From NCBI RefSeq assembly GCF_003019035.1, contig NZ_CP027447.1: a DNA stretch of 64,000 bases; one strand, written 5' to 3'. The notes below the pieces were generated by a model. The model saw only the letters and a list, made by a program, of their open reading frames with translations, was not told where the DNA came from and did no database searches. The stretch comes from Escherichia coli. GTDB taxonomy: Bacteria; Pseudomonadota; Gammaproteobacteria; Enterobacterales; Enterobacteriaceae. The translations under genes were made by a program, and so were the position numbers. The first letter of the stretch is position 1. The number at the start of each line of letters is the position of its first letter. Below are positions 6,963-63,967 of this stretch, in pieces.

Positions 6963-8351
6963 TTATTTTTGGCTGAACTTCCGCCGACCATAAACCAGCC
7001 AGGTCAGTAGCACGCAAACGATGTAGAAGATTAAAAACACTTTCATCGCGCCCACCGGAGAGCCGGTCATATTGAGCGACATGCCAAACGCCTGCGGAAT
7101 AAAAAAGCCGCCCACTGCGCCAATGGCTGAGATAAAGCCCAGAGCGGCTGCCGTTTCGGTGACGGCTTCTCTTTGAGCTTGCTCATCACTACCGCCTTTC
7201 ATCTTCACCCGATAAATGGTTATCTGGCGAAAGATGACGGCGATCATCTGGAAAGTAGAACCACTTCCCAGACCCGCGGTCAGAAACAGCCCCATAAATA
7301 CGGCGTAAAATGCGATGAAATTACCGGAGCCTGTGCCCGGTAAGGTAAGGAACAGCAGGGCGCTGAAAATCGCCATAAAAATGAAGTTGATCAACGTCAC
7401 CCGCACGCCGCCGAATTTATCGGAAATAGCACCACCAACCGATCGCGCGATGGCACCGATAAATGGGCCAAAGAACGCCAGGCGCAGAATATTCACATCC
7501 GGGAACTGAGTTTTCGCCAGCATGGCAAAACCCGCAGAAAAACCGATAAACGAACCGAAGGTGGCAAGGTAAAGCAGGCTCAGCAGCCAGAGATGCAGGC
7601 GTTGTAACACTGGCAGCTGGTCGGCAATTGACGCGCGTGAACTGGCGATATCATTCATCCCTGACCAGGCGGCGATCGTGGCAATCGCCAGTAATGGCAC
7701 CCAAATCCATGCGGCATTCGCCAGCGACATCACCGAACCGTCGGCCTGCGGTACGCCATTGACGCCGAGAAAGGCAAATACGGGTACAAAAATGACCAGC
7801 GGTGCAACCAGCTGCATCACACTTACACCTAAGTTTCCTAATCCGCCATTAATCCCAAGTGCGCTCCCTTGTTTGGCTTTTGGGAAGAAGAAACTGATAT
7901 TGCCCATGCTCGAAGCAAAGTTCGCACCTGCAAAACCGCATAGCAAAGCGATAACGATAAATATCCCAAAAGGAGTATTCGGATTCTGCACGGCAATTCC
8001 GAGCCAGACGCAAGGAATAATCAGGATTGCAGTACTAAAAACCGTCCATCGGCGTCCACCGAATATAGGCACCATAAAGGAGTAGGGGACACGCAATAAT
8101 GCGCCAGAAACGGAGGGTAATGCGGTTAATAAAAAGAGTTGATCGGTAGTGAAATTAAAACCGATTTTATTGAGATTAACAGTAACTGCGCTAAATAGCA
8201 TCCAGACACAGAAGGCAAGAAGTAGACAACTGACTGATATCCAGAGGTTTCTTCGTGCAATATGTTTTCCTTTATTTTCCCAGAAGGCCGGATTTTCTGG
8301 TTTCCAGTCGCGTAAAAGATAACGACTATTTTTCTCATTTTGCAGTGCCAT
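6963..8351 (-). CDS. narU: Nitrate/nitrite transporter (MFS, NarK family)
   Basis: ORF 6963..8393; probable start at ATG 8349-8351 (MALQNEKNSRYLLRDW), about 462 aa; multi-pass membrane protein upstream of narZ. Confidence 0.85.
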   Translation of the reverse strand: MALQNEKNSRYLLRDWKPENPAFWENKGKHIARRNLWISVSCLLLAFCVWMLFSAVTVNLNKIGFNFTTDQLFLLTALPSVSGALLRVPYSFMVPIFGGRRWTVFSTAILIIPCVWLGIAVQNPNTPFGIFIVIALLCGFAGANFASSMGNISFFFPKAKQGSALGINGGLGNLGVSVMQLVAPLVIFVPVFAFLGVNGVPQADGSVMSLANAAWIWVPLLAIATIAAWSGMNDIASSRASIADQLPVLQRLHLWLLSLLYLATFGSFIGFSAGFAMLAKTQFPDVNILRLAFFGPFIGAIARSVGGAISDKFGGVRVTLINFIFMAIFSALLFLTLPGTGSGNFIAFYAVFMGLFLTAGLGSGSTFQMIAVIFRQITIYRVKMKGGSDEQAQREAVTETAAALGFISAIGAVGGFFIPQAFGMSLNMTGSPVGAMKVFLIFYIVCVLLTWLVYGRRKFSQK

Positions 8352-8660
8352 ATTGTTCCTCACATGCACACATTGGTAATGAAAAAAAGACAAAACAGGA
8401 GGTAAGGCGCAATAGCCAATTATTAGAATTAAGGATGAATCAGGTGAAGTGCTGATTAGAAGAATAGATAAGAAAGCGTAACTGCGGAGGCAGAATGTGG
8501 ATTAAACAGACAGATATGTGTTACTAAATGTAACCATCAAACGGGGGTTAATCTTTGAACGTATGTCATGTTTCAACCCTTCAGATCGTGAATCTAAAGG
8601 GTTGCATATTAACTATATTCACAACAAGACCAGACACTTATAGAATTAGTGATGATTTAT

Positions 8661-9917
8661 TCACTGAAAAGGCCATGAGCTGGAGGAAAACGATCTGTCC
8701 AGAAAGTCTATCGGTTCCTCTCTTATCGCCTCATTGTAATAATCGTTATTACAGTAAGTATTGTTTATTTCATCTAATGTCATATTTTTAGTTTTTATAT
8801 TCATCTGATTTACAACTTCTTCTGTTTTATAAGTGTGTATATTATATGGGGTATATGCTTCTTTAATAGTATAGTGAAACAATTCGTTATCCACATCTAC
8901 TCCGTCAGAGTGAACTTCAAATGCACCAGGCGAAAGAATTGCCAGGCCAGTATTAAGCTTAAGTGCTGGGGAAAATAAATTAAATAACATGAGCTGCATA
9001 GTAGGGCAATTGTTCTTCCCAGAAACATTTAAAAAATTTAAGTTTTTGCTCTGTTTTATTATGGGGAATAAAGTTCCAATATCGGATGTATTCTTAGTGT
9101 CAATGCGGGTTATTTTATTATTGTCCAGCCTTAAACTTTTGATAGATGAAAGATAAGTCAGGAAATGAAGGTTTATTTTTTCCAACTGATTGTTCGCAGC
9201 GTTTAATGTCTGAACATTGCAGAAGTTGCTAAAGAATATTTTAATTTCAGAAAGCAAGTTGTTGTTGATAAGTAACGTATTCAAGTTGGGGAATAAGGCA
9301 TTATGTAAACTTGTTAGTTTATTATGGGATAGATCCAGCAGTAAAAGTTCATCTTTATTTCCTGCCACAATATCAGTTAATTGATTGTGGCTGAGATTCA
9401 GGTACTGCAGCCTTTCGCAACATTCTAATTGCACAAACTCTAGTTGATTATGTGCCGCACTAAAATAAGTAATTGATGAAAGCCGATCTATATCAATATT
9501 TCTGAGAGAATTATTATTCATAGATATATGTGTAATGCTTACATTTCTACCTTGAGGCAAATTTATTGACTCAAGAGCATTACTATTCAGACTAAGCTTT
9601 ACGAGTCTATCGTAGGTGGTTGTATCAAAATGTGTGAGTTGGTTATTATCAAGATTGATAGAGGTGAAGTTTTGCAGCCCTGGTGGTTGGGTAGTTAAAT
9701 TAAGTCCTGATAAATCAATATCATTCTGTTTCGACAAAAAAGCACAATTTATCCTTTTAGCGGCTTCGTTTCGGCATTCCGGACGATGGATTTCACCTGT
9801 AAGTATGCGTTCTGCTTTCCATTGATTTAATTCGAGCATCCAGTTAAATTCATTTTTTTCTGGATGTTGCTGTATGGATTGTGGATTTATTTTATTAAAT
9901 ATTGAAGGGAATTTCAT
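8661..9917 (-). CDS. Leucine-rich repeat protein (YddK-like)
   Basis: 418-aa ORF with many LxxLxLxxNxL repeats (e.g. LQYLNLSHNQLTDI, LLLLDLSHNKLTSL); AT-rich coding sequence. Confidence 0.7.
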   Translation of the reverse strand: MKFPSIFNKINPQSIQQHPEKNEFNWMLELNQWKAERILTGEIHRPECRNEAAKRINCAFLSKQNDIDLSGLNLTTQPPGLQNFTSINLDNNQLTHFDTTTYDRLVKLSLNSNALESINLPQGRNVSITHISMNNNSLRNIDIDRLSSITYFSAAHNQLEFVQLECCERLQYLNLSHNQLTDIVAGNKDELLLLDLSHNKLTSLHNALFPNLNTLLINNNLLSEIKIFFSNFCNVQTLNAANNQLEKINLHFLTYLSSIKSLRLDNNKITRIDTKNTSDIGTLFPIIKQSKNLNFLNVSGKNNCPTMQLMLFNLFSPALKLNTGLAILSPGAFEVHSDGVDVDNELFHYTIKEAYTPYNIHTYKTEEVVNQMNIKTKNMTLDEINNTYCNNDYYNEAIREEPIDFLDRSFSSSSWPFQ

Positions 9918-9979
9918 AACTGCTCCGTAGTAATGCTTTATTTTAATGATTTATTACCCTTGATAAATCAGGATGTGTT

Positions 9980-11245
9980 TTATAACTCTGTTGTAAAGGA
10001 TTGGCTTAACCAATTATTGGATGTTGGACCAAAACCTAAGGAAGGTTTATCCTCATTATGAATATAATAACAGACGGGTGTGCCCGTTGGGTCCTTTAGC
10101 CCCGAGTGTGAGGGTAGAGAAGAGGAATTTGACTTATAGTCACCAACCCCGTACATGCGACGCATAGGCAGAATAGCTTTTAGTTCTGCGTCAGAAAATA
10201 TTGTTTCTTCTTCTATTAAGGCGTACTCTCTGGAATAATATTTTGATCTATAACGAATAGACATTGAGTCATTTTCTTTTATATGATTTCCTTCGGAATT
10301 CTCGCTTACTTCTACAAGATGTTCATCGCTGGTATCGATATTTGTGATTGCCAGGTTATAAGATAAATCAATGGTCACTTCATTAGTGTCATCAATTATA
10401 TTTCTTACTGCAGTCCAGTACTGCATTTGGGCAAGTGGATCATTGTTGATGCCGTTAACTAATACATGCCAAAGATGTTTTGATGATATTAATTGATCAA
10501 TGTCATCTGTTGGCAATAAATTGTTATTGCTTAAGTTTAAATATTCCAGTTTTGTAGTGGTTTTCGCGTTTAAATGTGCAATATGGTTGTCGTTTAAAGT
10601 GATTTTCTCCACTATGGGGTGATTGTGTAATATAAGGTCATTGATCATGTTGTGATGGGCACTTAACTCAATCAGAGATTCTTGCCGGGAGAGATCCAGC
10701 GATGCTAGTTTGTTATAATCAAGATTAAGAAATTTCAGTTTATAACTATCAGAAATATTAATTTTTGTCAGGTTGTTATTTTGCGCTTCCAGGTTAACCA
10801 ATGAAAGCTGATTTTTTAAATCCAAATTTTCCAGATTATTGTGATCAATATAAATATTTTCCAGTTTTGATTGATTTGGAAAGGTTATCGTTTTAATTTT
10901 ATTAAAGCTGAGGTTGATATTGACGAGGCTGGCATTGTCAGTAAAGTCAAGACAAGTGAGACAATTGTTTTCCAGATTTAACGTGTTAACTGTCGAGGGG
11001 ATAGGGGGTAACTCACTCAAATCAAGATATGACAAATCAAGAGATGCCATGTTCGAATTGTAAGCTTCTTTAATTCGCTCCACGGCAATTGCTCTTTCTT
11101 CACCATTATTAAGCGACTTATTACCCCATTGTGCCAGTCGTTCACAAAAATTGCTGGAGATGGTTTTTTTGTTAGGTAATGCGTTATTTAATTGATAACT
11201 GGCATTATTTTTTACACAAGCTGTATTAATATTGGTCATAATCAC
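9980..11245 (-). CDS. Leucine-rich repeat protein, paralogue of the preceding gene
   Basis: 421-aa ORF with repeated LxxLxLxxNxL units (LVNINLSFNKIKTI, LKFLNLDYNKLASLDLS); AT-rich. Confidence 0.7.
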   Translation of the reverse strand: MIMTNINTACVKNNASYQLNNALPNKKTISSNFCERLAQWGNKSLNNGEERAIAVERIKEAYNSNMASLDLSYLDLSELPPIPSTVNTLNLENNCLTCLDFTDNASLVNINLSFNKIKTITFPNQSKLENIYIDHNNLENLDLKNQLSLVNLEAQNNNLTKINISDSYKLKFLNLDYNKLASLDLSRQESLIELSAHHNMINDLILHNHPIVEKITLNDNHIAHLNAKTTTKLEYLNLSNNNLLPTDDIDQLISSKHLWHVLVNGINNDPLAQMQYWTAVRNIIDDTNEVTIDLSYNLAITNIDTSDEHLVEVSENSEGNHIKENDSMSIRYRSKYYSREYALIEEETIFSDAELKAILPMRRMYGVGDYKSNSSSLPSHSGLKDPTGTPVCYYIHNEDKPSLGFGPTSNNWLSQSFTTEL

Positions 11246-27053: not shown

Positions 27054-28310
27054 TTATTTACTCATAGTATTGATATTGAAGACCTGTTCCAGCATGGGAT
27101 TGAACACAAAGCCTTTCACCTCTTTGTTCATCGCCAGTTGATAGTTTTTCTGGAACAGGTACACATAAGCAGCGTCATCAATGACGATTTTCTGTGCCTG
27201 CTGGTAGTCCCGGGTACGCTGCGTCTGGTCGGTGGTCGCTAGCGCATTGCGCAGTAACTTATCGACCTCACTGTTTTCATAGAACGAGCGGTTACCCGGC
27301 AGACCTTTTTTGTCGGACTCAAACCAGTAATTCATAAACATATACGGGTCGGCAAAATCCGGACTCCAGTTGCCAATCGCGATGTCGTAATCACCTTTAC
27401 CCACTCTGTCGCGCATGGTGGCGTTCGCCAGCTTTTCCAGCTTCACATTGATGCCCAGCTTGTTGAGACTGGATTGTGTCGCCAGAGCAATAGGCTCCCA
27501 GTTCGGATCATTATCAGAATAGAGAAACGTCAGGCTGGTGGGTTTGCTCGTCACTTTATCCCATTCGGCTTTGGCTTTCGTTTCGTCATGGTTGTATTGC
27601 ATTGCCGTCGCATCGTATCCCCACATGCCTTCCGGAATCGGGCCGCGCATCTGTTTTCCGTTACCACTCAGAATGCCGTTAACCATTCCCTGATAATCGG
27701 TAGACCAGGAAATGGCCCGACGCAGATCCGCCTGATTAAGTGGCGCTTTGCTGTTATTCAGATACAGATAGGTGACGCGCAGTGACGGATACTCTGCCAC
27801 ATTGACTTTGTTTTCCTGCTTCAGTGCGTTGAGTTGATCCACCGGCAGCGCATCGGCAATGTCAATGTCGCCACGGGAGAGCTGCAGGCGACGGGAAGCA
27901 CTTTCACCGATAATTTTTACCGATACCCGTTTGAAATTCGGTTTATTGCCGGGGTAATGCGGATTTGGCACCAGAACTAATTGCTGACCTTTTTGCCAGC
28001 TTTTCAGCATAAACGGTCCGGAGCCAGCGGTATTTTGCGCGAGGAAACCACGGGCATCATCCGCCGCATGCTCCTTTAAGACCGCCGGATTGATAATGGA
28101 TGCACCGTCATTCGCCAGCGTGTAGAGGAACGGTGCGAATGGCTGGCTAAGGGTAAACCTCACTATATGTTCGTCGGGAGCATCAATCTTTAAATCTTTG
28201 GGAAATGCTTCTGCTGGCCCCTGGCCGATTTTTAGTAACCGCTCAAAAGAGAGTTTTACTGCTTCGGCAGTGACAGGTGTGCCATCGGCAAATTTAGCAT
28301 TGTCCTTCAG
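27054..28310 (-). pseudogene. ddpA: ddpA periplasmic dipeptide-binding protein, 5'-truncated by prophage insertion
   Basis: Reading frame runs without stop from 27054 up to the prophage junction at 28310 (ORF track shows only 27054..28163 from an internal GTG); about 418 C-terminal residues remain, signal peptide and first ~98 codons absent. Confidence 0.85.
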
Positions 28311-28490
28311 TGTATTGATTCACTTGAAGTACGAAAAAAAACCGGGAGGACATTGGATTATTCGGGATCTGATGGGATTAGATTTGGTGGGGCTTGCAAG
28401 CCTGTAGCGCAAATTTTAGTCGTTAATCAATGAAACGCGAAAGATAGTAAAAAATTGCTTTTGTTTCATTGAAAATACGAAAAACAAAAA
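28311..28490 (+). repeat. Prophage left end (attL) with transposase-binding sites L1-L3
   Basis: Terminal TG; end-binding repeats TGATTCACTTGAAGTACGAAAA (28317-28338), TGAAACGCGAAAGATAG (28431-28447), TTGTTTCATTGAAAATACGAAAAAC (28461-28485). Confidence 0.75.
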
Positions 28491-28649: not shown

Positions 28650-29168
28650 TTATACGGCTTTTTTTACATCTTGTGGTTCTTGCGAAGGAGCTACAAGACC
28701 TTCCTGTTCATGAATACCATGCTCTGACAAAATCTCTTTGCGCTCTTCTGCTGGTAAAGTTTCTAGCATTTGGGCGAGTTGTATGCACTCACGCGATACG
28801 CCGTGCAGAGATTGGATTTGAGTCTGATCAAAGATACTTGGCATTAGTGCACTAAGTCCACCTTTACTAAGTAGCTTTAATGCCCTCTGGATTTCCTCTG
28901 GTTCTAACTCTGCAACCAAAGCCATTAACACAGAAGCTAACTTATAAGCTGACTTATCGTTATCTAATAACTGCGCCCCTCCTAATTCTGCCTGAGTGGC
29001 ATCAGGTAATGAGCTGATATGGTATTCATAAGCAACACCCTTTACTCCTTTGATCTGTCTCTTTTTCCATCCCTCATTAGTTGCTTTGCGGCTAATACTA
29101 CTTGCTGAAGACGGAAGACCAGCAACCCCTTGTAGCTCTTTAGCTGAAAACCATTCTTGTGTCATCAC
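28650..29168 (-). CDS. c: Prophage repressor c (D108-type N-terminal DNA-binding domain, Mu-like C-terminal domain)
   Basis: 172-aa ORF facing the left end; C-terminal ...[13 protein letters not shown]...[15 protein letters not shown]...[12 protein letters not shown] matches the Mu repressor family; N-terminal domain is homologous to the transposase N-terminus in this window. Confidence 0.8.
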
Positions 29169-29356
29169 AAACCTCGCTTTAAATACACGATGTATTCAAA
29201 GAAATGAAAAATATATTCACTTTAAAATCATCGAGATAGATGAATTTCAAACAAAACATTTGAATACACTATTGCATTGACAATGTATTCACACTAGCAT
29301 TACTGCATACCTTATCAGCTACCTTGCGGCGTAGCTGATGGCGTAGCTTGTGAGGA
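29169..29356. promoter_or_regulatory. Operator / early promoter / enhancer region between c and ner
   Basis: At least four copies of TGTATTCA(C) or its complement at 29191, 29212, 29261, 29284; divergent c and ner starts flank it. Confidence 0.6.
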
Positions 29357-29365
29357 TTGCATTTT

Positions 29366-29584
29366 ATGGCGATAAAGAAAAGTAAATGTGAAGACAAAAG
29401 TAGATACGACATTGTTGCTGATCTGCGCAAAAGAGGAAAAAGCCTAGCAGCTCTTGGTCGTGAGAACGGTCTCTCTATCTCTACGGTAAAAAATGCCTTG
29501 GATAAACCTTACCCTCGGGGGGAAAGAATCATTGCCGATGCATTGGGAGTTGAGCCACGAGACATCTGGCCTTCGAGGTATTGA
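29366..29584 (+). CDS. ner: Ner-family DNA-binding early regulator
   Basis: ORF 29357..29584; likely ATG 29366 with GAGGA RBS; [72 protein letters not shown] (Ner/Nlp family). Confidence 0.8.
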
Positions 29585-32809: not shown

Positions 32810-33040
32810 ATGTGTATTAAAGCCGAAAAATATATTGAATGGGTTAAACACTGTCAGTGCCACGGGGTGCCGCTGACGACATATAAATGCCCCGGATGTG
32901 GTGAACAGATTATGACGCAATGCTCACCCGAAAAGGAAATTCGGGATTCCCTGACATGTTGTCCGTGGTGCAGCGCGGTTTTCTTTAAGCAGGTAAAAGG
33001 CGCGAAGGTAAAAGCCAGCGCAGTTATTCAGAATCAATAA
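32810..33040 (+). CDS. Small cysteine-rich early protein (possible zinc ribbon)
   Basis: ORF 32786..33040; probable start MCIKAEKY; CQCHG...CPGCGEQ...CCPWC cysteine pattern. Confidence 0.5.
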   Translation: MCIKAEKYIEWVKHCQCHGVPLTTYKCPGCGEQIMTQCSPEKEIRDSLTCCPWCSAVFFKQVKGAKVKASAVIQNQ

Positions 33041-33051
33041 GGAGAAACAAA

Positions 33052-33321
33052 ATGGCAAAGGTTATCTTTGAGTTTACATGGCTGGAAAGTAGTGACGGTT
33101 GCAATGGGCGCAGAGAAGTTCTGGATGCAAAAGCATGTCTTGCAGATATCTCGCCAACGGAAAATACCGGGCCTCATGATTTACTGGCAAATATCGTCCT
33201 GACTATGGCTCCTGAAATTATTAAAAAGGCCAAAGATGAGATGCTGACCACTATGAAGAAAGTGGGTATGGAGGCTGAATGTGATTTAGTACCACATCCG
33301 GTGAATGCGGTTAAACATTAA
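33052..33321 (+). CDS. Early-region hypothetical protein
   Basis: 89-aa ORF with RBS-like AGGAGA upstream; same strand as early operon. Confidence 0.5.
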   Translation: MAKVIFEFTWLESSDGCNGRREVLDAKACLADISPTENTGPHDLLANIVLTMAPEIIKKAKDEMLTTMKKVGMEAECDLVPHPVNAVKH

Positions 33322-33341
33322 TTCGCAAAGGAGCGCTGACA

Positions 33342-33761
33342 ATGAACGTCAAAATCCGAAATGAAATTCAGGCATTAATCCGAATTCAGGAACGCAATAA
33401 CAACGGTGGTGAATTACGCGAGTTTATTTGCGCCCGGAAAGTTGATGGTTGTGGTGAAAAGACTTACCTGATTGCTTTCGACCATTACAGCATCTGTGCG
33501 CGTTATTGCGGCGAAAGCATATCCCGCGCCATTGCATTTGGCGGTGCGTTCAACGTGGATTTATGGGAGTACGTCATGGACCGGGAATACATCTGCGCAT
33601 CAGACCCTGAAGCCCGTGAAATGTGGCAGCGTATCTGGCGCGATTACCGGTTAATGGCAAAAGGCTGGGCGCGCTGCTGTTATTCCTCGCTTGCCCTGAA
33701 AGCGGTTCAGTTATCGCTACGGCATATTCCGGCATCACTGCGCGAGCCTCTGCTGTACTGA
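33342..33761 (+). CDS. Early-region hypothetical protein (cysteine-rich)
   Basis: 139-aa ORF, AGGAG RBS upstream, several Cys residues. Confidence 0.5.
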   Translation: MNVKIRNEIQALIRIQERNNNGGELREFICARKVDGCGEKTYLIAFDHYSICARYCGESISRAIAFGGAFNVDLWEYVMDREYICASDPEAREMWQRIWRDYRLMAKGWARCCYSSLALKAVQLSLRHIPASLREPLLY

Positions 33762-35234: not shown

Positions 35235-35758
35235 TGTTTTTTAAAACGTCAAATCCCGCAGCACTGCTGGCGTGGGACCAGTTTATGGCGGACTGTCTGA
35301 AACTACGCGAAGAAGCCCGCCATCTTGATAAGGTTCTGGGTTGTGGTTGCCGGTCAGTATTCAGCACAGGTATTGGTGGGCGTTATTTTCATGGTGTGAA
35401 CTTTCCGGGGAATGAGCGCCCTTTCTCGCGGGAGCTGTGGACCGTACAACGGCCCGCATCAGGTAACAGTTGCAGGCCTAGAACTTCGCGGATACCTGTT
35501 CATCTCAGGGAGCAGGCAAAAGAGCTGGCGAAAATATGGCAGGAGAATATTCCGGTCACTTATGCCCGCACAGATGCTCTTTTACCCGCACTGGGACTGG
35601 ATTTCAGCGCAACAATATTCGGGCCGCTCCGGTGGTTCCGTGTTGGTGATGTGATTTACGTCATGACGGGGATGACACCCGCACAGGGCTGCATGACGGA
35701 AATCCTGTCCGATGAATTCATGAAGGCAAAGATTGCGTTAAAGGGGGCCGCTAAATGA
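35234..35758 (+). CDS. Early-region hypothetical protein
   Basis: ORF 35195..35758; likely ATG 35234 (MFFKTSNPAALLAWDQF) with AGGAGG RBS at 35221, overlapping upstream stop. Confidence 0.5.
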   Translation: MFFKTSNPAALLAWDQFMADCLKLREEARHLDKVLGCGCRSVFSTGIGGRYFHGVNFPGNERPFSRELWTVQRPASGNSCRPRTSRIPVHLREQAKELAKIWQENIPVTYARTDALLPALGLDFSATIFGPLRWFRVGDVIYVMTGMTPAQGCMTEILSDEFMKAKIALKGAAK

Positions 35759-36423
35759 AAGAACGTGGCGTTGCTTTTAATGACGATATGGTCAGGGCAA
35801 TTCTCGAAGGAAGAAAGACGCAAACACGCCGCCCGGTAAAAAATGTCGGACACGATAACTGTCTGGTTATCCATCGTAACGGTGTTTATACCCACGTTAT
35901 GGATGCACCTGAGCATGGTTTATGCCCGTTCGGTAACGTTGGTGATCGCATCTGGGTCCGTGAAGCGTGGGCAATATTAGGCAATGAGGATGGTTGCAGT
36001 GTGGACTGGAACGGCAACCTTTGTCATGGCGATGAGAAGAAGGCAGCAAGGATTTATCGGGCAAGTTGTGAACAAAAGCCTGGTGATTACGGTCTGTGGT
36101 CAATACCTGATGATGCTGACTGGAAACCTCGCACTGTGAATGAAAAGTTTGATGGCAGGTGGTGCCCATCTATCCACATGCCGCGCTGGGCGTCGCGCAT
36201 TCTGTTGGGAATAACCGACGTGCGTGTGGAACGGCTGCATGATATTAGCGAGGCAGATGCGAAAGCGGAAGGCGCATTTCCGGCGACGTACAAAATTACG
36301 CCACCGGAAGCTGTTTATCGCGTTGGTTTTGGTGATATCTGGCGCGGTATTTATGGGCAAGATAACTGGCTGTCTAATCCGTGGGTATGGGTAATTGAGT
36401 TTAAGCGTATTCAGGAAGCATAA
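35755..36423 (+). CDS. Conserved prophage protein (ASCH/PUA-like N-terminal motif suspected)
   Basis: 222-aa ORF with N-terminal MVRAILEGRKTQTRRP and GDRIWVREAW motifs, recurrent in prophage proteins. Confidence 0.5.
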   Translation: MKERGVAFNDDMVRAILEGRKTQTRRPVKNVGHDNCLVIHRNGVYTHVMDAPEHGLCPFGNVGDRIWVREAWAILGNEDGCSVDWNGNLCHGDEKKAARIYRASCEQKPGDYGLWSIPDDADWKPRTVNEKFDGRWCPSIHMPRWASRILLGITDVRVERLHDISEADAKAEGAFPATYKITPPEAVYRVGFGDIWRGIYGQDNWLSNPWVWVIEFKRIQEA

Positions 36424-36425
36424 CT

Positions 36426-36767
36426 ATGAGCAAATCACTTAATGCACGTTGTATTCGCCGTTGGGAAGTCAGATTTAAGCCTGTTTGTGATTCAAAAGTT
36501 AGCCCTCACATGCGTAAAAGCTTTTTGCGTGGGGTGCGTGAATTAGGGCTTATTACGGCTGAAAACATGGTTGAAAGCATGGCTGAGAAAAACGCCAGGT
36601 TTGATTACGACGGCAAGGACACAGGCTGGTCACCGGAGTTTTCTAACTGGTATGCAACATGCCGAGAAAAGTATTGTAAAGAGGCCCGCGACTATCTGGA
36701 TGAAGAAGTCACAAACGATGAGATCGATGAAGAAATCAGAACTGAGCTAGAGTATTGGAATGACTAA
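36426..36767 (+). CDS. Early-region hypothetical protein with acidic C-terminal tail
   Basis: 113-aa ORF ending DYLDEEVTNDEIDEEIRTELEYWND. Confidence 0.45.
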   Translation: MSKSLNARCIRRWEVRFKPVCDSKVSPHMRKSFLRGVRELGLITAENMVESMAEKNARFDYDGKDTGWSPEFSNWYATCREKYCKEARDYLDEEVTNDEIDEEIRTELEYWND

Positions 36768-36837
36768 TCTGGCCGATATGACCGGAAAGTGTTTCAGCGA
36801 TACAAGCGGTGTGGTAGCACCGCTTTTTAAAGGTATG

Positions 36838-37392
36838 ATCATGAGTCGCACATCCCTGATTAAATTAATCCATGTCGCCCGTCGTGATCTACAACTCGAC
36901 GACGATACTTACCGCGCTTTTCTGATGCAGAAAACGGGCAAAATCAGTTGCCGCGAGCTGACGGTAACGCAACTGGAACAGGTGCTCGATGCCATGAAAG
37001 AACGCGGCTTTAAGAAGCTGAATAAACATCCACGTCGCCGCTTTAAGGGGCATGTCACGCCCCGCGAGAAGGTATACAAAGTCTGGCAGCAGATGGCAGA
37101 AGACGGTTTTATTACCGATGGCGGTGATGTGGCGCTGGATAAATATGTTCAGCGCCTGACGGCGAAACGTAATGGCGGACAGGGTGTTTCCACGCTGGCG
37201 TGGTGTCATGGCGACACCCTGTTGATTGTTCTCGAAACTCTCAAGCAGTGGCATATCCGCTGTATTCGTGAAGCCTTTTCCCGTCACGGGCTTCCGTTGC
37301 CGGTCAGTCCGTCCGGGCGTGAACTGCGCGGCTATGATGCCATGACGGCGGCTTATGCCCATGCCAGAAAGACACGGAGGATGGCACAATGA
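36838..37392 (+). CDS. gemA: GemA-like protein
   Basis: ORF 36760..37392; probable internal start MIMSRTSLIKLIHVARRDLQLDD; sits immediately upstream of mor as in Mu. Confidence 0.6.
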   Translation: MMSRTSLIKLIHVARRDLQLDDDTYRAFLMQKTGKISCRELTVTQLEQVLDAMKERGFKKLNKHPRRRFKGHVTPREKVYKVWQQMAEDGFITDGGDVALDKYVQRLTAKRNGGQGVSTLAWCHGDTLLIVLETLKQWHIRCIREAFSRHGLPLPVSPSGRELRGYDAMTAAYAHARKTRRMAQ

Positions 37393-37855: not shown

Positions 37856-38086
37856 ATGGGTAAAGGCTGGAATGCATCCTTTCATCTTGGCAGACGTGAG
37901 CGGCTGCGTCAGGAGGTTTTGCACCGTGTCGCCGGTGGGCCTCGGCCTTCGCCCCGCGACTATACCGGTCATGATGGCACCCACGGCAGTTATTACATGA
38001 AAGGCTGGCAGTCAGTTGATATGCCGGAAATTCTTCACCACTGTCAACGTTATAAGGAAAAATATTGTGTACAGAAAATTCAGTGA
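37856..38086 (+). CDS. Hypothetical small protein between mor and C
   Basis: 76-aa ORF; weak support. Confidence 0.3.
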   Translation: MGKGWNASFHLGRRERLRQEVLHRVAGGPRPSPRDYTGHDGTHGSYYMKGWQSVDMPEILHHCQRYKEKYCVQKIQ

Positions 38087-38119
38087 TGAATGTTTCGGGC
38101 CGTCCACGCTGATTAGTGC

Positions 38120-38197
38120 GATAAAAGTGATTGCCCTTGTGGTTCTGATAACCATCAGTGCCGTGGTGTATCTTTCTGTCTGTTAACCGGGGGAAAT
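38120..38197 (+). promoter_or_regulatory. Probable Mor-dependent middle promoter region (Pm) upstream of C
   Basis: Position only: in Mu, Pm lies directly upstream of C. Confidence 0.3.
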
Positions 38198-38620
38198 ATG
38201 CAGCATGATTTATTTGAACACGATCCGGCAATTCGCCAGTTAATCGGACATATTGATAACATCCCGGCCCCGGAACTGGAATCACGCTGGCCCCGTTCGG
38301 TGGTTGATCTGATTGATGTTCTGGAAAACGAACTGAAACGCCAGAACGTCAGCAATCCCCGTGAACTTGCCCGTAAACAGGCCGTTGCCCTGTCCTGTTT
38401 TCTGGGGGGGCGGCAGTTTTACATCCCCTGCGGCGATACTATCCTGACCGCGTTACGCGACGATTTGCTTTACTGCCAGTTCAATGGTCGTAACATGGAA
38501 GAACTGCGTCGCCAGTACCGCCTGTCCCAGCCGCAGATCTACCAGATTATTGCCCGCCAGAGAAAGCTGCATACACGACGTCATCAGCCTGATCTGTTCT
38601 CACCTGAAAGCCAGAAATAA
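38198..38620 (+). CDS. C: Late transcription activator C
   Basis: 140-aa ORF; C-terminal region (NGRNMEELRRQYRLSQPQIYQIIARQRK) paralogous to Mor. Confidence 0.85.
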   Translation: MQHDLFEHDPAIRQLIGHIDNIPAPELESRWPRSVVDLIDVLENELKRQNVSNPRELARKQAVALSCFLGGRQFYIPCGDTILTALRDDLLYCQFNGRNMEELRRQYRLSQPQIYQIIARQRKLHTRRHQPDLFSPESQK

Positions 38621-59160: not shown

Positions 59161-59693
59161 CACCCTATCAGACGGCCTTTCTGCAATTACTGCCGTCAGG
59201 GCTTGCCTGGAATAAAAGCCCCGACAGCAAATTATCTGCGCTGGCGCAGGCCATCAGCGACGTGATTGCCACTGCGGCGGATGATGCGCGGCAAATGCTG
59301 CGGGAGCGTTTCCCGTCCACATCCCGCTGGTATCTGGGGGAGTGGGAATCATTTCTGGGGTTGCCGGACTGTACCAGCGAAAACGGCACCTTGTCCGAAC
59401 GCCAGCGGGCTGCCGCGAATAAAATGCGTATGACCGGCAATCTGAGTCGGCGCTTTTATGAATGGCTGGCTGCGCAGTACGGTTTTACCGTCAGGCTGAC
59501 GGATTCCACAGAAGGCCAGTGGGTTACGCAGGTCAATATTTACGGTATTAAAAATTATCGCAACGCAACGGTGCTGGATAATGTCCTGACGCCGTTACGT
59601 GTTTATGAATCGGGTGCGCTGGAATGTTTACTGGAGAAATATAAACCCGCGCATCAGATTTATAAATTTGTTTACCATGACGGAGATAACTAA
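59151..59693 (+). CDS. Tail/baseplate protein (Mu gp48 position)
   Basis: 180-aa ORF. Confidence 0.6.
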   Translation: MAVTPYQTAFLQLLPSGLAWNKSPDSKLSALAQAISDVIATAADDARQMLRERFPSTSRWYLGEWESFLGLPDCTSENGTLSERQRAAANKMRMTGNLSRRFYEWLAAQYGFTVRLTDSTEGQWVTQVNIYGIKNYRNATVLDNVLTPLRVYESGALECLLEKYKPAHQIYKFVYHDGDN

Positions 59694-61048
59694 TGTTTTA
59701 TATTGATAACGACAGCGGCGTAACCGTCATGCCGCCCGTATCCGCCCAGCGTAGTGCTATCGTTCGCTGGTTTTCAGAAGGTGACGGGAATAATGTTATC
59801 ACATGGCCCGGCATGGACTGGTTTAATATTGTTCAGGCGGAGTTATTAAACACGCTGGAAGAAGCTGGTATTCAACCGGATAAAACAAAATTAAACCAGC
59901 TTGCACTGTCCATTAAAGCCATTATGAGCAATAACGCGCTGCTGATAAAAAATAACCTCAGCGAAATTAAAACTGCCGGGGCATCAGCACAGCGTACAGC
60001 ACGTGAAAATCTGGATATCTATGATGCCAGCCTGAACAAAAAAGGACTCGTTCAGCTAACCAGTGCCACTGACAGCCCCAGTGAAACGCTGGCAGCCACC
60101 GCAAAAGCGGTGAAAATTGCGATGGATAATGCCAATGCCCGTCTGGCAAAAGACCGGAACGGAGCAGATATTCCCAATAAGCCGCTGTTTATCCAAAACC
60201 TCGGTTTACAGGAAACGGTAAACAAGGCTGGTAACGCTGTTCAGCGTTCTGGCGATACAATGACCGGAAAACTGAATCTACCACAGACATCTGCATTCGG
60301 CGTTAATACCGATAATGCACTGGGTGGTAATTCCATTACTCTCGGAGATAACGACACCGGTATTAAACAGGGCGGCGATGGTGTCCTTTTATTCTATTTA
60401 AATGGACAACTGATATTTGGGCTTCAACCCACATCCGCTGATTTTTATAAGCGAGTTGCCTACATTCATCAGGGAGTAGCTCCAGATGGGAGTGGCGCAT
60501 TTGCAGACCAGTTAAATAATGCCACCGCGCCTTTTGTTCAGACGCAGTTTGCCTGGAATCCCACTCCTGGCGGTCATTACGTACCGATAGCTAAGGGCTT
60601 GTCCATTCGCAATGGACAGGGGTATCCAGGTGCGGTCAGCTTTGGTTATTTACTAACTGAACAAATGGGATTTCCCATACCATGCATTCATATGCGTGGA
60701 GATTACGGAGCTGATGCTTTGTGGCAGTTTAACCCGAACGATAAATCTTTTATTTCACCGGGGGCTCTTGTTGCGGGTGGCATCCGTTATAACACCGATG
60801 GAAATATATTTGGCGGGTGTTGGGGTTCAAATTTAGCTGATTATCTCAATAGCACATATGTAAGAGACATTCGACTTGGTAGCGCAGAATCAATATCAGC
60901 ATGGCGAGGCCCTGGTTACTGGGATACTTCTGGATATGTTCTGACCGCAGCCGGAAACAGCAACACCGATGAATTTATTGATACATTAACCAGAAGGCCT
61001 ATTCAGAAGTTGATTGGTGGGACATATTATAACGTTGTGAGTATTTGA
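59693..61048 (+). CDS. S: Tail fibre protein S (constant part 59693-60188 fused to the variable part currently in expressed orientation)
   Basis: 451-aa ORF crossing the left inverted repeat at 60189; C-terminus ...[10 protein letters not shown]. Confidence 0.8.
60189..60227. repeat. Left inverted repeat of G segment (contains gix recombination site)
   Basis: TTATCCAAAACCTCGGTTTACAGGAAACGGTAAACAAGG; reverse complement of 63010-63048 with 2 mismatches. Confidence 0.85.
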
Positions 61049-61049
61049 C

Positions 61050-61577
61050 ATGATGCATTTAAAAAACATTAAAGCAGGGAACCCAAAAACACCTGAACAA
61101 TACCAGTTAACCAAAAAAGCTGGAGTGGTCTGGCTTTATACTGAAGATGGTAAAAACTGGTACGAAGAACAAAAAAACTTTCAACCAGATACTATAAAAA
61201 TTGCATACGATAAAAATAATGTGATTGTTACCGTAAGCAAAGATGTTTCAACGATTAACCCGGAAGGTTTAAGTGTTGTTGAAGTATCCGATATTACGGC
61301 AAATCGTCGCGCAGACAATAACGGAAACTGGATGTTTCTGGATGGTAAAGTAGTAAAGCGGGAATATACAAAACAGGAGCTGCAACAGCAGGCAGAGTTA
61401 CAAAAATCCGCTTTGCTTTCCGAAGCGGAGTCTGTGATTCAACCGCTGGAACGTGCTGTCAGGCTGAATATGGCAACTAATGAGGAACGCGCACGACTGG
61501 AGTCATGGGAACGCTACAGTGTTCTGGTCAGCCGTGTGGATACGGCAAATCCTGAATGGCCACAAAAGCCTGAATAA
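61050..61577 (+). CDS. U: Tail fibre assembly protein U (expressed orientation)
   Basis: 175-aa ORF; paralogue of minus-strand 61606..62139 ORF (both begin [11 protein letters not shown]). Confidence 0.8.
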
Positions 61578-61583
61578 AAATTA

Positions 61584-61604
61584 AGGCCCGATAGCGGGCC
61601 TTGT
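61584..61604. terminator. Bidirectional hairpin between convergent U and U'
   Basis: AGGCCCG-ATA-GCGGGCCT. Confidence 0.5.
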
Positions 61605-61605
61605 C

Positions 61606-62139
61606 TCATTCTGGTTGTTCCGGGAATGTTACAGGAAGAACAGAGGTATCTGTGGCATCAACCTGCTGCATGTATAACATCCAGTTAATGAGTCTTTGCC
61701 TGTCTGAATCGCTGATAATTCCCAGCGCAAGCTGTGTTTGCCAGCACTGCGTTTCCTCTCTGGCCTGTCGCAGCAAAATCTGTTTCTGAATTTCAGCCAG
61801 TTGACGTAGTTCTTCATCAGTCCGGGGGCGTTTCATGACCTTGCCATCCTGAAACACCCAGTCACCGAGAATATCGGCCCGGCGATTCGCTGTCGTGTCG
61901 GGTAATTCGACAACGCTCATTCCTTCCGGGTTAATAGACGACACATCTTTTTCAATATAGCGAATGATACCTCTGTCATCGTAAGCGATTTTTAGTGTGT
62001 CTGCCTGAAAGGCTTTTTGTGCCTCATACCAGTTCTGACCATCTTCAGCGTAAAGCCAGATAACACCATGTCTCTTTGTTAACTCATACTGTTCCAGTGT
62101 TTTAGCATTACCCGCTTTTATGTTCTTTAAGTGCATCAT
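61606..62139 (-). CDS. Alternative tail fibre assembly protein U' (silent orientation)
   Basis: 177-aa ORF, N-terminus near-identical to U. Confidence 0.75.
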   Translation of the reverse strand: MMHLKNIKAGNAKTLEQYELTKRHGVIWLYAEDGQNWYEAQKAFQADTLKIAYDDRGIIRYIEKDVSSINPEGMSVVELPDTTANRRADILGDWVFQDGKVMKRPRTDEELRQLAEIQKQILLRQAREETQCWQTQLALGIISDSDRQRLINWMLYMQQVDATDTSVLPVTFPEQPE

Positions 62140-62140
62140 A

Positions 62141-63009
62141 TTAAACGCTCGCTACATTATACCAGGTGCCATTTATATACTTTTGAACGGGTCTGTAATA
62201 AACGCCCGCTATATTATCGGCAGAGTTGGACCCTGTATCCTGAACATTAATACCAGACAATACATGACCTGACGGGCACTTGAAATTCCATGTTTGCCAG
62301 TTGTTCACACCATGATATTGCTGTGAACCAAGACGAACATCTTTTACGTATCGGGAATCAAAGTTACTCCAGTTACTTGGTTGTATGTGACCGTTTACAG
62401 CAAATATCACCGAATTATCTGTATTTCGCTGACTATAGAAATGCCAGCCTGAATCATCACCAAGCTCTGCAACAGTTGGTCTTGATGAAGTGCCCCATAA
62501 ATTAAAACCTACGTTTTTCGTGGAGTTGTTGGAGCTGGATAGCGTGAATTTTTTACCATCCCCGGCCTGAACGTTTTTAAAAGCAATAGCAACTCCATTC
62601 TGAAAGCGGAATACTCGCTGACTATTAGCGTAAACATCCAGAATACCGTCTCCATTCTGTTTAAATCCGGTATCATTATCACCAAGAACAATAGAGCTAC
62701 CACCTAACGCATTCGTCGTACCAACTCCAAGGCTGCCATTAATGACGGCATTAACAAGAATATTTAGTGCATCCCATTTCAGCGTCATCAGGTCTTTTGT
62801 TGTGGTGCTTTGTTTGCTTCTCCATTTGAAATATTCATTGCCGTTGTCGCCTGTTTCAAACCACATGTATGAATCAGTGTCACCATCGGCATCATTTTTA
62901 AATCCAATCTTCGCCCAGTCAGTATTTCGAATCCAGGCAAGGATTGAGTCATTTTCAAAAGTAAGCCCACCGGACAAAGTATCGCCATTTTTTTGCACGG
63001 CATTACCAG
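62141..63009 (-). CDS. Alternative tail-fibre variable region S' (no own start; in frame with S constant part after G inversion)
   Basis: Open minus-strand frame from the right inverted repeat to 62141; hand translation from the repeat gives ETVNRAGNAVQKNGDTLSGG... in the same phase as S; C-terminus ...NGTWYNVASV similar to S. Confidence 0.75.
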
Positions 63010-63048
63010 CCCTGTTTACCGTTTCCTGTAAACCGAGGTTTTAGATAA
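63010..63048. repeat. Right inverted repeat of G segment (contains gix site)
   Basis: CCCTGTTTACCGTTTCCTGTAAACCGAGGTTTTAGATAA. Confidence 0.85.
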
Positions 63049-63102
63049 TGGCCGTTTCCGGCCTGCATGGCATGATTTGCGATTTTGGACGGGAGATTCA
63101 GC

Positions 63103-63684
63103 GTGCTGATTGGCTATGTAAGGGTATCAACAAATGACCAGAATACAGACCTGCAACGAAACGCTCTTGTTTGTGCAGGATGTGAACAAATATTTGAAGA
63201 TAAATTAAGCGGAACAAGGACAGACAGACCTGGATTAAAGCGCGCTTTAAAGCGTCTTCAAAAAGGTGACACACTGGTTGTCTGGAAACTGGATCGCCTC
63301 GGGCGAAGCATGAAACATCTGATTTCTCTCGTCGGAGAACTACGGGAGCGAGGGATTAATTTTCGCAGCCTTACTGACAGTATTGATACGTCATCCCCAA
63401 TGGGGCGTTTTTTCTTCCACGTTATGGGTGCCCTGGCTGAAATGGAACGAGAACTAATCATCGAGCGAACGATGGCTGGACTTGCTGCCGCCAGAAATAA
63501 AGGCCGTATTGGTGGGCGACCACCTAAACTAACCAAAGCGGAATGGGAGCAGGCCGGGCGTTTATTAGCACAAGGAATCCCCCGCAAGCAGGTTGCATTG
63601 ATCTACGATGTGGCCCTGTCAACTCTGTATAAAAAACACCCCGCGAAACGAGCGCATATAGAAAACGACGATCGAATCAATTAA
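63103..63684 (+). CDS. gin: Gin serine DNA invertase
   Basis: ORF 63085..63684; likely GTG start 63103 (MLIGYVRVSTNDQNTDLQRNAL...); resolvase/invertase catalytic Ser in VRVSTNDQ and C-terminal HTH. Confidence 0.9.
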   Translation: MLIGYVRVSTNDQNTDLQRNALVCAGCEQIFEDKLSGTRTDRPGLKRALKRLQKGDTLVVWKLDRLGRSMKHLISLVGELRERGINFRSLTDSIDTSSPMGRFFFHVMGALAEMERELIIERTMAGLAAARNKGRIGGRPPKLTKAEWEQAGRLLAQGIPRKQVALIYDVALSTLYKKHPAKRAHIENDDRIN

Positions 63685-63710
63685 ATCGATCGGTAATACA
63701 GATCGATTAT
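63668..63710 (+). promoter_or_regulatory. mom operon regulatory region with clustered Dam GATC sites
   Basis: Three GATC sites at 63670, 63688 and 63701 within about 35 bp upstream of com. Confidence 0.6.
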
Positions 63711-63778
63711 GCCCCAATAACCACACTCAACCCATGATGTTTTTTAAGATAGTGGCGAATTGATGCAAAGGAGGTGAG

Positions 63779-63967
63779 ATGAAATCAATTCGCTGTAAAA
63801 ACTGCAACAAACTGTTATTTAAGGCGGATTCCTTTGATCACATTGAAATCAGGTGTCCGCGTTGCAAACGTCACATCATAATGCTGAATGCCTGCGAGCA
63901 TCCCACGGAGAAACATTGTGGGAAAAGAGAAAAAATCACGCATTCTGACGAAACCGTGCGTTATTGA
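63779..63967 (+). CDS. com: Com zinc-finger translational activator of mom
   Basis: 62-aa [41 protein letters not shown]... with C4 zinc finger; GGAGG RBS. Confidence 0.85.

Follow-up and report, generated by a model that had tools for sequence, protein, structure and literature searches.

The locus lies in a 64-kb stretch of Escherichia coli DNA (the window) and contains the tail-fibre gene S, a second and silent variable part for this gene, a tail-fibre assembly gene for each of the two variable parts, two inverted repeats and the serine invertase gene gin (Table 1).

Table 1. Features of the invertible segment and its surroundings in the window.
Feature	Position	Strand	Description
S, current orientation	59693-61048	+	451 aa, in frame, open
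Sc, constant N-terminal part of S, to the crossover core	59693..60200	+	residues 1-170, same as Mu S
Left inverted repeat	60189..60227	none	contains gixL
gixL	60189-60214		TTATCCAAAACC TC GGTTTACAGGAA; core TC at 60201-60202; same as Mu gixL
Sv, variable part fused to Sc now	60201..61048	+	Pfam PF03406
U, tail-fibre assembly chaperone for S	61050..61577	+	175 aa, intact, Pfam PF02413 (Caudo_TAP)
G+C-rich hairpin between convergent U and U'	61583..61602	none	T-run on the minus strand only
U', tail-fibre assembly chaperone for S'	61606..62139	-	177 aa, intact, Pfam PF02413 (Caudo_TAP)
Sv', silent variable part	62141..63036	-	fuses to Sc after inversion
Right inverted repeat	63010..63048	none	contains gixR
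gixR	63023-63048		TTCCTGTAAACC GA GGTTTTAGATAA; core GA at 63035-63036
Intergenic region upstream of gin	63049..63102	+	presumed gin promoter and ribosome-binding site
gin, serine DNA invertase	63103..63684	+	193 aa, intact

The arms of the inverted repeat are 39 nt each with two mismatches, as the initial annotation had described; the mismatches are at repeat position 6 (C/T) and repeat position 37 (A/G). By our own arithmetic, a 39-nt repeat with at most two mismatches is expected by chance about 1e-10 times per window. Inward of the arms a weaker similarity continues (79 nt at 82%), because Sv and Sv' open with the same residues. By the outer edges of the repeats the G segment measures 2860 bp, in agreement with the 2.86 kb first reported; from one 2-bp crossover core to the other it measures 2836 bp. 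The cores, TC and GA, are one dinucleotide in inverted orientation, and the segment is bounded by two inverted gix sites. When the window was scanned with a degenerate 26-nt gix pattern allowing up to three mismatches, exactly two gix-like sites were found (0.02 expected from shuffles), and no site beyond gixL and gixR was found in the 64 kb. Having only two such sites rules out a multiple-inversion system, such as Min of p15B or the shufflons, which have more than two crossover sites. Two further pairs of long inverted repeats, 60995-61211 with 61978-62194 and 61239-61360 with 61829-61950, were rejected as recombination sites; they are the paralogous S/S' ends and U/U' genes, facing each other.

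The gixR site has an A at 63043 where Mu has a G, a variant common to D108, A21, vB_YpM_3, Esc30 and Esc31. It had been suggested that a mismatch in the outer half of the repeat avoids a stop codon at the S junction. This suggestion did not survive our analysis: the T/C mismatch belongs to the outer gix half-site, which stays with the flanking DNA and at no time becomes joined to S, so that the TAA of the right copy never meets Sc. The T variant at repeat position 6 is also present in D108, A21 and vB_YpM_3. Judged from the sequence, the position-6 mismatch is a neutral inherited difference, with the left copy coding and the right copy non-coding.

The constant part of S lies outside the G segment and is in frame with a variable part either way. 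In the present orientation it reads into Sv, and the G boundary annotated in Mu, at S nucleotide 509, corresponds to 60201 of the window. When the segment was inverted in silico at the cores, Sc was joined to Sv' to give an uninterrupted 467-aa S'. The two frames had been predicted, the second by hand translation, and both were reproduced, as were the single complete assembly gene after each variable part and the intact gin just past the segment. Beyond the shared N-terminal part, the two fibre tips are about 29% identical to each other, and they resemble the fibres of different phages. Over its last 250 residues, Sv shares 99.6% identity with the variable region that is unexpressed in the Yersinia phage vB_YpM_Tongde. 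In S', residues 172-270 match Mu Sv almost residue for residue, and the C-terminal 205 aa share about 73% identity with gpH of P2 and Wphi; among the fibres of P1 and P2 there are homologues of the Sv' tip. At 451 aa, S is 60 residues shorter than the 511-aa S proteins of its closest relatives, A21 and vB_YpM_3, and its function is not guaranteed.

Of the two assembly genes, U is 80% identical to Mu U, and U' is 66% identical to Mu U' and 55% identical to the window's U. The hairpin between them looks like a terminator, and at the matching place in D108 rho-independent terminators are annotated on both strands.

The Gin protein of the window is 100% identical to Mu Gin (GIN_BPMU). It matches PDB 3UJ3 over its full length (E 9e-126), likewise PDB 4M6F, and carries the Pfam domains Resolvase and HTH_7, which places it among the serine recombinases of the invertase subfamily. 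In Gin, Ser9 is the linking serine and replacement of Met114 by Val abolishes the requirement for FIS (PMC3575834). The gin gene differs from that of Mu at 12 nucleotides, all of them synonymous because the proteins are identical, and none falls within the first 123 nt (63103-63225). This 5' stretch, in which we take the enhancer position to lie, should hold the FIS-dependent recombinational enhancer, and we treat the enhancer as present. A recombinational enhancer in the 5' part of gin goes back to Kahmann et al. (1985), as cited in PMC10434027. The gene starts 54 nt past the right repeat, and these 54 nt presumably serve as its promoter; their sequence is nearer to that of D108, A21 and vB_YpM_3 than to that of Mu.

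The switch is part of a full-length Mu-like prophage, which sits in E. coli ddpA. Its left end, at 28311, is the exact Mu left end. The right end lies outside the window, in which mom is present as its first 27 codons only. A target duplication, TTCAG, was recognized by combining the left junction of the window with the right junction of a public contig (L014) that has one mismatch to the window. A and B, the proteins for transposition, share 94% and 99% identity with those of Mu. Leaving aside the fibre genes S and U, full-length matches at 94-100% were found for A, B, Gin, Com and the Mu lysis, head, tail and baseplate proteins (lys to gp48). The prophage thus has the Mu ends, the 5-bp duplication, the A and B proteins and the Mu-type late genes of a Muvirus. 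The exact prophage was absent from the complete E. coli genomes of the collection searched, and the chromosome region of strain SCU-301 is 99.99% identical to that of the window and lacks the prophage.

Both states of the segment occur in public genomes. The exact 451-aa S is encoded on 49 public contigs; for the exact 467-aa S' fusion the number is 14. Two contigs (L009, from assembly GCA_053411195.1, and L010) correspond to the window with the G segment inverted, with three mismatches in 9308 nt, and two others (L014 and L016) have the present orientation, with one and three mismatches, respectively. Between the E. coli sister genomes Esc30 and Esc31, both complete, a related G segment is exactly inverted; the inversion spans 3013 bp, with no mismatches across the segment and its flanks. 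The flipped contigs fit an inversion built at the cores with the repeats free of mismatches, and so the crossover must fall between repeat positions 6 and 37. The finding of only one orientation had been named as an outcome that would speak against a working switch; instead, public assemblies hold prophages near-identical to that of the window in both orientations. From these near-identical prophages elsewhere we infer that the window's own lysogen would switch as well. Programmed inversion in the tail fibre of a Mu-like E. coli prophage has already been confirmed by long reads (PMC9881135).

Based on these observations, we conclude that the locus is almost certainly an intact host-range switch of the G-segment type, carried by a transposable Mu-like phage (genus Muvirus) that has integrated into the E. 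coli chromosome. We propose that Gin dimers would bind the two inverted 26-bp gix sites. With host FIS on the enhancer inside 5' gin, Gin would cut both sites at the 2-bp core. One pair of half-sites would then be rotated by 180 degrees and religated, thus flipping the 2836 bp between the cores. As neither the late transcript nor the first 170 codons of S are part of the segment, its orientation would decide which fibre and chaperone pair is made. In the present state Sc-Sv would be made together with U, giving the 451-aa S, and in the flipped state Sc-Sv' would be made together with U', giving the 467-aa S'. Virions would thus come in two kinds that differ in their receptor-binding tips. For the dependence on FIS and the enhancer, the rate of switching and the host range of each fibre, we rely on established Mu biology, which the window's prophage would be expected to follow.

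Three other explanations were weighed against an intact, working switch. The switch could be complete in structure and yet frozen in this lysogen, with either the change in gixR or the diverged region upstream of gin blocking recombination or expression. The gixR base at 63043 is unlike that of Mu, 13 of the 54 upstream positions differ from Mu, and the authors who described SfMu suggested that a single repeat mutation beside the core might block inversion (PMC4406740). However, the change in the window is at position 6, in the outer half-site and far from the core. The same base occurs in D108 and also in Esc30 and Esc31, between which the G segment has demonstrably been inverted, and on these grounds we reject the G-to-A change as inactivating. 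The gin upstream region resembles that of D108. With near-identical prophages occurring in both orientations, we consider a frozen switch very improbable. The two orientations seen in public contigs might themselves be artefacts of assembly across the repeat, since the contigs are mostly from draft assemblies and assemblers can mis-join at repeats. Such an error is scarcely credible here: the repeat, at 39 nt, is below read length, the contigs (74-448 kb) are continuous through the region, the complete genomes Esc30 and Esc31 show an equally exact flip, and a related prophage has the published long-read confirmation (PMC9881135).

A different doubt concerns the fibres and not the inversion. 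The switch may flip and still yield only one working fibre if the 451-aa S has lost a module of roughly 60 residues and is a dead or weakened allele. The 511-aa S proteins of A21 and vB_YpM_3 do have an extra block, between residues about 193 and 206, and in vB_YpM_Tongde, which forms plaques, the short allele is in the unexpressed position. Against a dead allele, the short form is open, full length and unchanged on 49 contigs, and it is 99.6% conserved in a separately isolated phage. The residues that flank the junction differ, which indicates a module swap and no simple deletion, and S' also lacks a matching Mu-type block and resembles P2 gpH. We therefore regard a dead S allele as improbable; that the 60-residue shortfall is a damaging deletion is not supported by the sequence comparisons and is likewise improbable.

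The G-inversion switch is a textbook Mu system, and this one is real but ordinary and already known. Public assemblies of E. coli and Salmonella, as well as isolated Yersinia phages, already contain the allele and its two orientations many times over. The value of the intact switch described here is thus limited mostly to correct annotation. It is also a clean natural case in which both states of a programmed inversion are documented from public assemblies alone, and it adds evidence that tail-fibre tips are exchanged as modules among Mu-, P2- and P1-type phages. An alignment of the variable parts with Mu and D108 had been put forward as a way to predict host range. Because both variable parts are distinct from the Mu and D108 alleles, these phages give no guide to the host range. 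It is possible, although we consider it doubtful, that with its two fibres the prophage reaches hosts across genera, in a range unlike that of Mu. This idea comes from the Sv tip, which is 99.6% shared with a Mu-like phage isolated on Yersinia pestis, from the P2-gpH-like Sv' tip, and from the presence of the exact S' protein in Salmonella enterica assemblies too. If it is true, the switch might alternate between Escherichia, Salmonella and Yersinia hosts via putative receptors.

Compared with Mu (AF083977), the window has the same order of Sc, gixL, Sv, U, U', Sv', gixR, gin, com and mom, and the Gin protein, gixL, the first 123 nt of gin, Sc and the boundary nucleotide in S are the same. The segment itself is different: it is 3060 bp core to core in Mu and 2836 bp in the window. 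Except for about 37 residues next to the junction and about 67 at the C-terminus, Sv has no counterpart in Mu, whereas Sv' is 47% identical to the G(+) Sv of Mu and is not like Mu S'. The immunity genes have also diverged (c 46% and ner 50% identity). D108 has the same layout, the same gixR variant (GGTTTTAGATAA) and a similar gin upstream region. However, its S and S' variable parts are Mu-like and unlike those of the window, and position 12 of its gixL half-site is a G, where the window and Mu have a C.

The window's G-segment allele belongs to a family shared with A21, vB_YpM_3, vB_YpM_23, vB_YpM_Tongde and the Esc30/Esc31 prophage. The E. coli A21 Mu-like prophage matches 96% of the region at 93.5% identity, with U at 99.4%. 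Compared with the window, S' in the group of A21, the Yersinia phages and Esc30/Esc31 is 83-85% identical, but U' is only 68% identical. The S proteins of A21 and vB_YpM_3 carry their extra block of about 60 residues relative to the window, and the last ~60 residues of vB_YpM_3 S are also unlike the window's. The unexpressed variable region of vB_YpM_Tongde matches the window's Sv over 250 aa, short junction included.

Switches of the Din family include Cin and the C segment of P1, Pin and the P segment of e14, Hin and the H segment of Salmonella, and Min of p15B. All of them use a serine invertase that acts at 26-bp crossover sites, each with a core of 2 bp, and an enhancer to which FIS binds, and those of P1 and e14 likewise alternate tail-fibre C-termini. 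In contrast to these other members of the family, the recombinase in the window is Gin itself and no paralogue. Unlike Min, the window has two crossover sites, and thus it is a simple two-state switch.

The G segment (Mu-type invertible DNA) is confirmed as observed, and the evidence supports its interpretation as a G-inversion switch of the canonical Mu kind, carried by a Mu-like prophage that is full-length and heteroimmune. The 39-bp inverted repeats with two mismatches and the segment of about 2.86 kb reported in the initial annotation were reproduced: the arms differ at repeat position 6 (C left, T right) and position 37 (A/G), and the segment is 2860 bp long when measured to the outer edges of the arms, or 2836 bp from one central dinucleotide to the other. 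A 26-bp gix-type site starts each arm. With a degenerate gix pattern and up to 3 mismatches, exactly two gix-like sites were found in the 64-kb window, against a chance expectation of 0.02. Inversion needs identical core dinucleotides in inverted orientation, and the cores of gixL and gixR are the same dinucleotide in that arrangement.

Features of the G segment and its flanks (window positions)
Feature	Position	Strand	Remarks
Inverted repeat arms	60189-60227 and 63010-63048		39 nt each
gixL	60189-60214		TTATCCAAAACC-TC-GGTTTACAGGAA
gixR	63023-63048		TTCCTGTAAACC-GA-GGTTTTAGATAA
S	59693-61048	+	451 aa; first 170 codons outside segment
U	61050-61577	+	after S
Hairpin	61583-61602		G+C-rich, terminator-like; between convergent U and U'
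U'	61606-62139	-	
Sv' (second variable region)	end at 62141	-	reads out through right repeat
gin	63103-63684		GTG start at 63103
com	63779-63967		Com 100% identical to Mu Com

As had been stated, S is at present in frame with the plus-strand variable region, each variable region has its own assembly gene, and an intact gin lies just past the segment. The hand translation that put S' in frame after inversion also proved correct: after in-silico inversion of 60201-63036, translation beginning at the S start gave an uninterrupted S' of 467 aa. Thus, both tail-fibre fusions are open in this prophage. The short S may be fully functional. At the position of the hairpin between U and U', D108 has annotated terminators. 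In the window the hairpin has a T-run on the minus strand only; it looks like a simple intrinsic terminator that is stronger for S'-U' than for S-U transcripts.

The switch would have been in doubt if only one orientation were ever seen with gin intact, but public assemblies hold a near-identical prophage in both. Searched by exact sequence in a public protein collection, the 451-aa S was found on 49 contigs and the 467-aa S', built beforehand only in silico, on 14 (E. coli and Salmonella enterica); this imbalance could come from clonal sampling or from a real majority-orientation bias in cultures. The DNA around these copies was then fetched and aligned to the window. Once G is inverted in the window, two contigs, L009 and L010, match it with 3 mismatches over 9308 nt. 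Two others have the present orientation: L014, with 1 mismatch in 9.3 kb, and L016, with 3; at least two of these sites (54952 and 55028) differ from the window in L009 and L010 as well. When the inversion is made at the core, the repeats of the flipped contigs agree with it without mismatch. Thus, the crossover fell between repeat positions 6 and 37, an interval that fits a core at positions 13-14. Independently, in the sister E. coli genomes Esc30 and Esc31, both complete, a related Mu-like prophage has a 3013-bp G segment exactly inverted, with no mismatch in the segment or in flanks of 1000 and 1700 nt. Additionally, a survey confirmed by long reads the programmed inversion of a Mu-like tail-fibre gene in E. 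coli FDAARGOS_1059 (PMC9881135), whose Mu-like prophage is among the matches to the window.

The initial annotation also proposed that a repeat mismatch avoids a stop codon at the S junction. The left copy, being part of the coding sequence, needs a sense codon there; the right copy is non-coding, and its TTATCTAAAACC, read in the S frame, gives TAA. In serine-invertase recombination the outer half-sites remain with the flanking DNA. Because this TAA lies in the outer half-site, it is never joined to the constant part of S, and the mismatch variant is inherited across D108-like relatives. We therefore rejected the mismatch as a special device.

An exact Mu left end lies at 28311, and the host DNA upstream is 99.99% identical to E. 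coli SCU-301, which has the same chromosome region without the prophage. The insertion (28306-28311) splits ddpA, which encodes a D,D-dipeptide ABC transporter binding protein. TTCAG precedes the left end in the window and follows the right end in L014 (10711-10720), so TTCAG is a 5-bp target duplication, as is typical of Mu. With the right end taken from the near-identical L014, the prophage is about 37.1 kb and runs past the window end. Further upstream, host DNA at 8000-14000 is low in G+C (36-45%) and colinear with SCU-301, where leucine-rich-repeat protein genes, pseudogenes and a porin gene are annotated.

Full-length matches of 95-100% were obtained for every Mu lysis, head, tail and baseplate protein from lys to gp48 apart from S and U, and likewise for Gin and Com; A and B, the transposition proteins, are 94% and 99% identical. 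Repressor c and Ner (immunity region, 28653-29581) share only 46% and 50% identity with those of Mu, which makes this phage heteroimmune to Mu; transposase A is divergent at its N-terminus as well. The immunity region does not match D108 either, but matches Escherichia phage PhiR68_1, which of the isolated phages is nearest over the first 24.7 kb (100% coverage, 98.1% identity). The Mu early and middle genes gp7, gp13, gp14, gp54 and gp19 gave no tblastn match (33037-33342, 35731-36841 and about 38071-38200); other sequence appears to have taken the place of these small accessory regions.

Sequence comparison showed that neither variable part is a Mu or D108 allele. Sv is 78% identical to S of the E. 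coli A21 prophage over the variable part, where the alignment has a gap of some 60 residues, and 62% identical to Yersinia phage vB_YpM_3; S has 511 aa in these closest relatives. The absent block lies near 60270-60310 and, because the residues on both sides also differ, the shortening looks like module exchange. The short form, with the same junction, occurs at 99.6% in Yersinia phage vB_YpM_Tongde, in the unexpressed position. The 'complete genome' deposited for that phage (MT591577.1) opens with a partial sequence (1-216) whose annotation is glycine-tRNA ligase beta subunit, probably variable host DNA packaged at Mu-type phage ends. With S' of A21, vB_YpM_3 and Esc30, Sv' shares 83-85% identity. 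Such mosaicism, in which Mu-, P2- and P1-type phages have fibre modules in common, is well known; therefore, host range cannot be read from Mu or D108, and the alignment suggested for predicting it does not serve. The switch is not new, and its fibre allele is already common in public data.

Downstream of gin are two GATC sites (63688 and 63701), and the start of mom follows com, cut off by the window end; this stretch (63684-63967) is the mom control region typical of Mu.

Compared with Mu, Sv shows likeness only in its junction-proximal 37 or so residues (56%) and in its last 67 or so (39% to Mu S, 52% to Mu S'). Sv' is 47% identical to the Mu G(+) Sv, the two being nearly identical across residues 172-270, and over its C-terminal 205 residues it shares about 73% identity with the gpH proteins of P2 and Wphi. 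U has 80% identity to Mu U, and U' has 66% to Mu U'. Gin is 100% identical to Mu Gin, so all 12 bases at which gin departs from Mu are synonymous changes; solved Gin structures match the protein along its entire length. A stimulatory site within the invertase gene has been described (Kahmann et al., 1985, as cited in PMC10434027). None of the differences falls within the first 123 nt of gin. The predicted FIS-dependent enhancer presumably lies in this stretch. Lastly, gixL is identical to that of Mu, whereas in gixR Mu has G at the base corresponding to 63043, where the window has A; D108, the A21 prophage and vB_YpM_3 have the same A, and the gixR variant of the window is also found in the Esc30 and Esc31 prophages.
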